Source: Candidatus Woesearchaeota archaeon
GTDB taxonomy: Archaea > Nanobdellota > Nanobdellia > Woesearchaeales > GW2011-AR9
Assembly (NCBI GenBank): GCA_016181265.1
Contig: JACOZP010000008.1
Span: 20,156 to 84,155, forward strand
Reading direction: 5' to 3'
Length of the DNA stretch: 64,000 nucleotides
Shown piece after piece: positions 4,190-61,898 of the stretch. Each line of letters starts with the position of its first letter. The stretch's first letter is position 1. The translations under genes and the position numbers were made by a program. Below the pieces are notes generated by a model. It saw only the letters and a list, made by a program, of their open reading frames with translations, was not told where the DNA came from and did not search any database.

Positions 4190-4205
4190 ATTTTTGATGG
4201 TACAG

Positions 4206-4471
4206 TCATAAAAGTGCGGGAAAGCGGCTCACCTCGCTCTAAAGCCCTAAGAAATCAGACTTGATTTCTTGGGCACAAGAAGAGTCGTTGCTTTTCTTTG
4301 TGAGCGAGGCTTGAAAAGAGACGCTTTCTAATCCCCGCACTTTGTGACATAAATAGGCTAGAAAGCCATTCGCACAGAAAGACAACGATCTTTCTGGCGT
4401 CCCAGCAAAGCTATTTCTTTGCTGAGGACATCCTCGTCTTAAAAGACGAGGCTTTCTGGCCTATTTAATGT
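4206..4471 (+). ncRNA. unclassified structured RNA, copy 1 of 2 (paralog of 61508-61877)
   Basis: Collinear with copy 2. Identical blocks: GAGCGAGGCTTGAAAAGAGACGCTTTCT, ATCCCCGCACTTTGTGACA, ATAAATAGGCTAGAAAGCCATTCGCACA, GGACATCCTCGTCTTAAAAGACGAGGCTTTCTGGCCTATTTAATGT. Long-range helices: AAAGTGCGGG/CCCGCACTTT and the 16-bp AATAGGCTAGAAAGCC/GGCTTTCTGGCCTATT. Hairpins differ between copies by compensatory changes. G-U wobbles occur only when read on the + strand. No ORF is conserved between copies. Confidence 0.7.
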
Positions 4472-4610
4472 GATAATAGCTCTTGTTTTCAGAAAACATA
4501 CCCGCTCGTTAGAGGGGCTAAATCTCTCATTTCGTAAAATTTTTATATTTGAATTGCTACGAAGAGTACTAAGACCGTGTTCTGAGGGTCAACAAAGGTG
4601 GGGATATATA

Positions 4611-4703
4611 ATGGCCAAACCAATGAAAAAGAGAAGAAATGACGAAGATTTCGACGATGATTCTAACGACGAAGATACGGATACCGGCGATGATTGGAAT
4701 TAA
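4611..4703 (+). CDS. small highly acidic peptide (30 aa), hypothetical
   Basis: ATG at 4611 preceded by AGGTGGGG 8-9 nt upstream (SD-like). TTTTTATATT box at about 4540. MAKPMKKRRNDEDFDDDSNDEDTDTGDDWN. The longer alt-start version in the track (4470) runs into the RNA locus. Confidence 0.35.
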   Translation: MAKPMKKRRNDEDFDDDSNDEDTDTGDDWN

Positions 4704-4769
4704 ATTCTAAACGGTCTTAGAATTTCCGCATCTTTTTTATTTTTTACAGATCTAAAATATTTTAGAGAT

Positions 4770-45362: not shown

Positions 45363-45529
45363 TAGGTTGAGTAAGAAAAAAGAGGATTTAAATGTTTCGA
45401 AAAGAACGAGCCACTGGTCACAAAGAAAGAAACAACGCTTTCTTTCTTGTGCAGAAATATGATCGTTGTCGTATTTCTTGCACTGGACAAGTACGGGTGA
45501 ATAATATAAATCACTCATTTCTTTCAAAA

Positions 45530-46686: not shown

Positions 46687-46760
46687 GGGATTATAGTTTA
46701 ATGATAAAATTTCAGGCTCCAGACTTGAAGATCCGGGTTTAATTCCCGGTAATCCCACCA
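46687..46760 (+). tRNA. atypical intron-less tRNA-Trp(CCA) with encoded CCA
   Basis: GGGATTA-TA-GTTT-AATGATA-AAAT-T-TCAGG-CTCCAGA-CTTGA-AGAT-CCGGG-TTTAATT-CCCGG-TAATCCC-A-CCA. The cloverleaf is complete, but the D-loop lacks GG and the T-loop is TTTAATT rather than TTCRAAT. Confidence 0.7.
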
Positions 46761-61501: not shown

Positions 61502-61507
61502 AGAGTC

Positions 61508-61877
61508 TCATAAAAGTGCGGGAACATGAAAACTGACGACGATCAGTTTTCTGTTCAGAAATGCAATATTATTTACATTTCTTGAAAGCGTCTCACTTCG
61601 CTCTAAAGTCCTGAGAATTGCCGTGCAATTCTGGGACGCAAGAAAATGATTTTTCTTCGCGAGCGAGGCTTGAAAAGAGACGCTTTCTGATCCCCGCACT
61701 TTGTGACACAAGAAGGACAAGTCCTTCTGTGCAAACAGACAATGTCTGTTTTGCATAAATAGGCTAGAAAGCCATTCGCACAATGAAACAAAGATTTCAT
61801 TGGCGTCCCAGTGAAATATCATATTCACTGTGGACATCCTCGTCTTAAAAGACGAGGCTTTCTGGCCTATTTAATGT
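61508..61877 (+). ncRNA. unclassified structured RNA, copy 2 of 2 (expanded paralog of 4206-4471)
   Basis: Same ordered conserved blocks and helices as copy 1, plus about 62-nt and about 46-nt insertions. Each insertion folds into two self-contained hairpins (e.g. GAAAACTGA/TCAGTTTTC, AGAAATG/CATTTCT, AGAAGGAC/GTCCTTCT). A T-rich tract follows the 3' end. Confidence 0.7.
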
Positions 61878-61898
61878 AACTTTATTTCTCATTGCATC

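Follow-up and report, generated by a model that had tools for sequence, protein, structure and literature searches.

Rickettsia palindromic elements (RPEs) are hairpin repeats of ~150 bp that are present in multiple copies, have no linked transposase and are mobilised by an unknown mechanism; they include in-frame inserts in unrelated metabolic genes (PMC10969869). Mitochondrial double-hairpin elements, also described as repetitive hairpin-forming elements, lie in spacers, rRNA genes and occasionally protein genes, and are reported not to be removed from transcripts (PMC2800124). [quoted passage not shown] In this report, we describe two related segments, copy A and copy B, in a stretch of 64,000 nt from Candidatus Woesearchaeota archaeon (assembly GCA_016181265.1, contig JACOZP010000008.1, positions 20,156 to 84,155 of the forward strand; the whole stretch is called the window here). 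An original prediction, made from the letters of the window, had proposed that they are one of two paralogous copies each of a dedicated structured RNA. We conclude that both are probably copies of a small, non-coding and non-autonomous hairpin repeat of the selfish, MITE- or RPE-like type, which is spreading or has recently spread in some Woesearchaeota and Nanoarchaeota.

The two segments exist much as they had been described, with slightly wider bounds (4205-4472 and 61507-61878). They are collinear, both on the + strand, and lie 57 kb apart. Five exact blocks of 17, 28, 17, 29 and 46 nt are common to both; the window contains exactly two instances of the quoted 46-mer, one per copy, and conserved 27- and 34-mers are confined to copies A and B within the 64 kb, even at 3 mismatches (0 expected, 100 shuffles). 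The predicted folds of the + strand have minimum free energies of -131.3 kcal/mol for copy A (z = -12.4 against shuffles) and -169.6 kcal/mol for copy B (z = -14.6), and contain the helices that had been named by eye. Folds of the minus strand are nearly equal (z = -11.7 for copy A and -14.0 for copy B).

The anatomy of these copies is best seen in the minimal element of the family, ~150 nt in length. It is a tandem of two long, related hairpins, domain 1 (D1) followed by domain 2 (D2). Examples are L003 and L015 at 150-152 nt, where L plus a number (as in L160) labels a homologous or related DNA locus compared with the window. D1 has the form GTCAT-AAAGTGCGGG...CCCGCACTTT-GTGAC, with conserved unpaired CTAATC and AC/GCTTGAAAA, and is built from three stacked helices (GTCAT/GTGAC plus AAAGTGCGGG/CCCGCACTTT; AAAGCGTCTC/GAGACGCTTT; CCTCGCTC/GAGCGAGG). 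D2, of the form ACAT-AAA...TTT-AATGTA, comprises an outer helix of 15-18 bp, an apical hairpin and, as a bulge, the conserved ATTCAT; at least five sequence types of D2 have one common shape. Because the 5' arms of D1 and D2 are alike, the ends of the element form an inverted repeat, albeit a weak one: when the last 24 nt are reverse-complemented, they agree with the first 24 nt at 15 of 24 positions, a score reached by 6 of 2000 shuffles.

Discrete inserts of ~45-60 nt, each a pair of 25-30-nt hairpins, set the larger copies apart from the minimal ones. Seven kinds of insert position were found: the gap between helices 1 and 2 of D1, the D1 apical loop, the 3' strand of helix 2, the D1-D2 linker, the D2 bulge, the D2 apical loop, and the loop of a hairpin that is itself inserted (L025, L116 and L030). 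Copy B is copy A plus two further hairpin pairs, and such extra nested pairs, which are carried by subfamilies, account for the difference in length between copy A (268 nt) and copy B (372 nt). The features of the window are as follows, with the evidence for each in brackets where it applies.

4205 to 4472, + strand: copy A, whole element of 268 nt, containing D1, D2 and two nested hairpin pairs (bounds from the family catalogue and the L160 empty site)
4205 to 4239, + strand: 5' arm of D1, GTCAT.AAAGTGCGGG / AAAGCGGCTC / AC / CTCGCTC, helices 1-3 (fold and D1 covariation)
4244 to 4301, + strand: hairpin pair in the apical loop of D1, not in minimal elements such as L003 and L015 (fold and catalogue)
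4302 to 4348, + strand: 3' arm of D1 with the conserved unpaired GCTTGAAAA and CTAATC (fold and D1 covariation)
4349 to 4371, + strand: 5' arm of D2 (ATAAATAGGCTAGAAAGCC) and start of the ATTCAT bulge (D2 alignment and covariation)
4372 to 4429, + strand: hairpin pair in the ATTC^AT bulge of D2 (catalogue and module analysis)
4430 to 4472, + strand: apical hairpin of D2 (CCTCGTC/GACGAGG), 3' arm of D2 and terminal AATGTG (D2 covariation)
61507 to 61878, + strand: copy B, whole element of 372 nt, the scaffold of copy A with four nested hairpin pairs (fold and family catalogue)
61524 to 61584, + strand: hairpin pair between helix 1 and helix 2 of D1, also carried by L022 and L040
61608 to 61660, + strand: D1 apical-loop hairpin pair, placed as in copy A and with compensatory differences from the copy A pair
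61708 to 61753, + strand: hairpin pair in the D1-D2 linker (GTGAC^ACAAG...), also in L002, L030, L071, L085, L100 and L119
61778 to 61835, + strand: hairpin pair in the D2 bulge, at the position of the copy A pair
45420 to 45481, + strand: solo hairpin pair that belongs to no D1-D2 scaffold, with loops CAACG and TCGTTG and with CCACTGGTC and CACTGGACAA as flanks

Across the family the stems covary, while the unpaired CTAATC, GCTTGAAAA and ATTCAT are fixed. For D1, 96.8% of the cells in 33 pairs are paired and 9 pairs have changed on both sides (33 cells); for D2 the figures are 96.4% of cells in 25 pairs, with 8 pairs changed on both sides. In neither domain did any of 500 shuffles reach the score, and slid controls brought the paired fraction down to 33-59%. 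The sequence of D1 helix 1 was fixed by the search patterns with which copies were collected; in the divergent copy L265, this helix is exchanged for other complementary strands, AGAAATTCGCC/GGCGAATTTCT. The two-domain secondary structure first drawn by eye is real and its helices are kept by compensatory change. The individual differences listed for it (CAC/GTG versus CGC/GCG, AAATCA/TGATTT versus AATTGC/GCAATT, GAAAG/CTTTC versus ATGAAA/TTTCAT) are all visible in the alignment and the folds, and are differences between the orthologous inserted hairpins of copies A and B.

The family is multi-copy and patchily distributed. With a 19-mer of D1 and a gapped pattern, ~45 copies were found in at least 15 metagenome-assembled genomes (MAGs) of Woesearchaeota and Nanoarchaeota (DPANN archaea), at 2-5 or more per MAG; SMAG_U8017 has at least five, and RIFCSPLOWO2_01_FULL_44_20, ERP119705_co13_634 and C4_metabat.bin.63 at least four each. 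The resulting catalogue holds ~40 complete and several truncated copies, with lengths of 118-372 nt. The 19-mer matched 41 loci, of which ~25 are true copies in such MAGs and the remainder correspond to the expected number of bacterial chance matches, whereas the palindromic gapped pattern added ~10 new true copies, its other matches being mostly chance bacterial hairpins and an unrelated repeat of Richelia. An exact 34-mer of D2 is present in four genome assemblies besides that of the window. A covariance model of D1, which scores copy A at 94 bits, gave only four matches (L160, L248, L252, L265) in ~1.1 Mb from ~160 other related loci. The collections of viral contigs (searched with two patterns), phages and plasmids held no match to the element.

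Two side observations concern these searches. The repeat of Richelia intracellularis (L047, L051, L063, L065, L069 and ~20 further loci) is a palindrome of ~95 nt, GGCGTTGCATAAGTGCGGGATGA...TCATCCCGCACTTATGCAACGCC, that occurs in both orientations and has only the 9-bp stem AAGTGCGGG/CCCGCACTT in common with the archaeal family. The element, or blocks of genes around a Woesearchaeota-like tRNA-splicing endonuclease (EndA), also appeared in many MAGs labelled 'uncultured Methanosarcinales' (TPA, Third Party Annotation, assemblies) and in single 'Omnitrophota' bins (L004, L020, L026, L027, L029, L032, L042, L071, L116 and many EndA loci); all of these appear to be DPANN bins with mis-assigned taxonomic labels.

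Assembly breaks occur at the element. At least seven copies from six MAGs abut contig ends (L004, L007, L011, L020, L035, L042, L128), and L160 opens on a D2-like fragment. The window organism, recognised by its identical proteins, is also represented by an independent Logan assembly, in which one contig ends inside the 28-nt common block of copy A and another starts within the 46-nt common block of copy B; this is the behaviour expected of repeats in short-read assemblies.

Compared with syntenic relatives, copies A and B are both insertions. Among the genes of the window are the archaeal markers EndA, RLI/ABCE1 and class I GluRS, and its closest GTDB species representatives are groundwater Woesearchaeota with 85-88% identity in EndA. 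Copy A is placed between two divergent promoters, one belonging to a 362-aa gene and the other to a conserved 30-aa acidic open reading frame (ORF) upstream of EndA. The pair of EndA and the 362-aa gene is also adjacent in L160, L162, L172 and L176, where the spacers are element-free and ~0-270 nt long, against 610 nt in the window. The window and L160 have a common left junction, ...GTTTAAATAATTTTTGATGGTA(C/G)A or in its shorter form ...TTTAAATAATTTTTGATGGTA(C/G)A, past which the window enters the element with GTCAT... and L160 an unrelated spacer; the acidic ORF follows further on in both. Copy B lies between the stops of the convergent SpoIIM-like and PD-(D/E)XK nuclease genes, 5 and 20 nt away. 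This convergent pair is kept in ~45 metagenome loci, with element-free spacers in L240, L241, L246-L249 and others. In the closest relatives (87-91% amino acid identity) the spacer measures ~30 nt, compared with 397 nt in the window, where the element takes up 372 nt. As there are two independent sites and the closest relatives are empty, gain is far more parsimonious than loss.

The same comparison settles whether the two copies could be direct repeats (att sites or LTR-like ends) at the edges of an integrated element of 57 kb, as their common orientation at this distance might suggest. At each copy both flanking genes are neighbours in relatives, and the copies are thus separate small insertions and not the ends of a 57-kb island. 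With single scattered copies in other genomes and no matches in the viral, phage and plasmid collections, this explanation can practically be dismissed. The genes around both copies were checked and are housekeeping genes with no transposase among them, just as had been reported. Beside copy A, the acidic ORF (4612-4704, + strand; MAKPMKKRRNDEDFDDDSNDEDTDTGDDWN) is kept together with an upstream TTTTTATA box in the syntenic L160 and is therefore probably a real small gene.

Family members can also land in coding sequence, where they are kept in frame. In L056, a copy of 153 nt lies in frame in a 643-aa fusion of NTP-transferase, HAD-phosphomutase and mannose-6-P-isomerase (MPI); in comparison with a solved alpha-phosphoglucomutase (PDB 4bnd), residues 1-76 and 86-247 flank an insert of ~50 residues, which is the element. 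In L085, a copy of 207 nt adds 69 aa in frame to a 1550-aa ORF, and in L019 the frame of a P-type ATPase continues for 17 codons into a copy that replaces its stop, directly after the end of the C-terminal Pfam domain. The consensus element has stops in the frame of the host gene, but in-gene copies carry small indels that remove them, and the internal ones have lengths that are multiples of 3. It had been stated that the copies share no reading frame; this holds for copies A and B, which have stops in all three frames, and fails for the family, two members of which lie in frame within genes.

Insertions in genes could be harmless if the element were cut from transcripts like an intron, for instance by the archaeal splicing endonuclease at a bulge-helix-bulge. 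The hosts are indeed archaea that encode EndA, with one EndA gene ~300 nt from copy A by coincidence, and in-gene copies exist. However, the 3-4-3 bulge-helix-bulge is missing from the ends of the element, which do not pair with each other, the 5' end pairing with the middle of the element and not with its 3' end. Furthermore, both fully internal in-gene copies (153 and 207 nt) are multiples of 3 and carry stop-removing indels, as is expected only if they are translated; these properties argue for translation rather than splicing, and an intron-like element, including an archaeal bulge-helix-bulge intron, is very unlikely. As a side observation, the 1550-aa ORF of L085 (2698-7347, - strand), whose contig was binned as Nanoarchaeota, has several sigma-70 region 2, 3 and 4 domains. 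These are odd in an archaeon, and the contig may be mis-binned or mobile.

A different explanation starts from the fold itself. The element could be a gene, either mobile or present in multiple copies, whose active product is a structured RNA made from the + strand, such as a regulatory small RNA, a protein-sequestering RNA, or a bridge- or omega-like cofactor or guide of its own mobilisation. Covariation of D1 and D2 around fixed unpaired motifs is what such a gene would display, and hairpin pairs added mostly in loops are reminiscent of the expansion segments of RNAs. The D1 model scores 95-115 bits on the forward strand against 20-29 bits on the reverse strand, an asymmetry that gives the family a defined orientation yet does not separate RNA from single-stranded DNA. 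The + strand is more stable by a mean of 2.7 kcal/mol, in 28 of 35 copies, which are not independent samples. The argument from wobble pairs for transcription of the + strand is weaker than had been proposed: this difference in stability is in its favour, but the minus strand folds almost as well, and G.U pairs are not enriched on the + strand (98 over 35 copies, versus 130 on the minus strand).

Other properties expected of an RNA gene are missing. The flanking genes adopt all four orientations (9, 7, 6 and 5 cases), so that the element is randomly oriented to its neighbours, and it has no conserved synteny. No common promoter or terminator was found at a fixed distance in the flanks: none of the positions from -45 to -1 carries as much as 0.35 bit of information, a TATA-like motif is seen in 3 of 38 upstream flanks, scattered and at no fixed distance, there is no T-run 3' of the element, and conservation ends exactly at the element ends. 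Copies in ORFs, with open frames and lengths that are multiples of 3, are also at odds with an RNA gene. The 147 neighbouring ORFs include no recurrent partner and no enriched Pfam family, and neither TnpA, RAYT, TnpB, IscB nor a recombinase is among the top 25 of the 139 Pfam families listed for them.

The sole match of Rfam 15 in the whole window at the gathering threshold is a tRNA at 46687-46757. At an E-value threshold, both loci gave only chance-level matches (E >= 0.37; 10-20 bits, versus gathering scores of 43-211), in agreement with the earlier statement that they match no known RNA family. Archaeal H/ACA RNA was rejected by inspection of the covariation-supported fold, as helix 1 takes in the ACA of GTGACA, tandem G.A pairs are missing and the internal loops, of 0/6 and 2/9 nt, are one-sided; C/D RNA was ruled out on the anatomy of the fold. 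Template and variable repeats of a diversity-generating retroelement were also rejected, because the copies differ by indels and compensatory pairs that are not adenine-specific, and do not lie at the 3' ends of genes. Taken with the multi-copy, dispersed family, its lineage-specific insertions in the window and its members in genes, the absence of promoter, terminator and fixed orientation and the near-equal folding of both strands speak against a pair of paralogous RNA genes as originally envisaged, and a mobile gene for a functional RNA is rather unlikely.

The hairpin pairs deserve separate consideration, as they also occur outside the D1-D2 scaffold, in the window at 45420-45481 and in L028, L056, L071 and L176. 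The flanks of the solo pair in the window (45411-45419 and 45482-45492) recur with the same architecture at ~3990-4060 of L028, and this pair may represent a second, smaller repeat family. In one genome after another, the loops of the pairs belong to one of two classes that are reverse complements (CAACGA or AAACTAC versus TCGTTG or GTAGTTT), on covarying stems. The two loops of a pair, or of nested pairs, were often observed to be reverse complements of each other (L030 2500-2620, L036, L022, L025), with the order F F R R in L030. Such complementarity could reflect kissing loops or an origin by inverted duplication; the nested pairs may be independently mobile or may arise by local inverted duplication.

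One of the pairs outside the scaffold sits at the tip of a long GC-rich hairpin in an otherwise AT-rich genome (L056 3140-3300, - strand; loops CAACGA and GTAGTTTT). This hairpin adjoins, on the upstream side, the 5S rRNA gene at L056 2885-3001 (- strand), and has no match in Rfam. An idea that we consider improbable is that the element is a self-propagating gene for a two-hairpin structured RNA with conserved bulges and covarying stems, for example the cofactor or guide of an undiscovered RNA-dependent mobilisation system of DPANN archaea. The nested pairs would then be kissing-loop modules that spread on their own into structured RNAs, perhaps including the one near the 5S rRNA gene of L056.

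A host-domesticated repeat with an architectural or cis-regulatory role, like REP/BIME, BOX or ERIC sequences, is quite improbable. Such a repeat might stabilise transcript ends, act as a terminator or serve as a site for a chromatin or topology protein; very stable hairpins, a BOX-like modularity and a mostly intergenic position, often filling the whole of a short spacer as with copy B at 5 and 20 nt from convergent stops, would suit it. However, most related genomes lack the element, as do the syntenic sites in close relatives, so that it cannot be required. It lies just as often between divergent promoters (the case of copy A) as in every other flank arrangement, and no T-run follows it.

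The reading that we favour, a selfish hairpin repeat, implies a mechanism. The folded single strand, either DNA during replication or transposition or possibly RNA, would be the substrate recognised by a trans-acting enzyme, with the fixed bulges and loops as putative enzyme contacts. Recognition of the fold would select for compensatory changes in the stems and let secondary insertions survive mostly in loops and junctions. Candidate mobilisers are single-strand transposases that recognise hairpins, of the IS200/IS605 or RAYT type.

Several points weigh against this reading. A functional RNA would be just as likely to show strong covariation, unpaired bases that are conserved and the strand asymmetry seen with the D1 model. 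Filled and empty alleles were not seen at strain level, the empty relatives having only ~80-90% protein identity, so that loss at each site is formally possible. No transposase or other mobilising gene stands among the top Pfam families listed for the neighbouring ORFs, where a single match could be hidden, and no autonomous parent element or insertion sequence (IS) with the same ends was seen in the examined loci. A consistent target-site duplication is missing: 12 of 34 copies show none even if their boundaries may shift by 2 nt, and the others have flank matches of 2-3 nt in AT-rich sequence with no common length. Together with the weak terminal inverted repeat, this places the family outside the classical definition of a MITE. 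Finally, in-gene copies are rare (2-3 of ~45), and the peptide encoded by the element found one weak match in a set of 5.8 billion proteins, either because translated copies are rare or because the MAGs in question are missing from that set.

How the family compares with described systems can now be stated. Like classical MITEs, it is small (118-372 nt), non-coding, multi-copy (~45 copies), non-autonomous, mainly intergenic, taxon-restricted and, by its empty syntenic sites, insertion-polymorphic; unlike them, it lacks a target-site duplication, no parent IS was identified in the examined loci, and its weak terminal inverted repeat stems from the relatedness of D1 and D2. With RPEs it has in common a hairpin-forming repeat of ~150 bp in many copies, no sign of a linked transposase, intergenic positions along with in-frame inserts in functional ORFs (L056 and L085), and hosts with small, compact genomes. 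It differs in its DPANN archaeal hosts, in the exceptional status of in-gene copies, which are frequent in RPEs, and in its two-hairpin scaffold, nested hairpin-pair modules and clear stem covariation; homology is neither claimed nor expected. The mitochondrial double-hairpin elements are similar in being dispersed tandem double hairpins with complementary stem substitutions that combine into multi-hairpin structures, but they belong to the organelle genomes of fungi and sponges, are shorter, have no conserved bulge motifs and are not known from archaeal chromosomes.

PATE elements derived from IS200/IS605 and REP/REPIN sequences are moved by Y1 HUH transposases acting on single-stranded hairpins. 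Like these, the archaeal family lacks target-site duplications, has hairpins at both ends, conserves structure over sequence and has a distinct top strand. In the archaeal family, by contrast, the hairpins measure 60-90 nt and reach the very ends of the element, and there is no GTAG or CGTC head and no conserved 5' tetranucleotide target, nor indeed any conserved base 5' of the element; as described above, the listed neighbour Pfam families include no transposase. The pneumococcal BOX elements are bacterial repeats composed of boxA-boxB(n)-boxC modules in series and are highly structured when transcribed. They resemble the archaeal family in that their end modules are conserved and the internal modules between these vary in number, but their modules are serial and not nested in loops, and the sequences are unrelated. 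No description of the D1-D2 repeat family was found in the literature. The family is a newly described small hairpin-forming mobile repeat of a known general kind, and is unusual for its nested hairpin pairs and its clear compensatory evolution.

What appeared to be a novel two-domain RNA gene is thus a repeat family, and annotations of DPANN genomes should mask such loci or label them as repeats; the repeat copies also explain contig breaks in assemblies of these genomes. A well-delimited hairpin element that lacks target-site duplications is added to a very sparse catalogue of small mobile DNA in archaea, in host genomes of ~1 Mb in which each insertion is costly. The compensatory evolution of both hairpins, and the hairpins nested within hairpins, are useful for work on the recognition and growth of hairpin elements, and the in-frame copy in the sugar-phosphate mutase domain of L056 is an archaeal parallel to the RPE phenomenon of Rickettsia.

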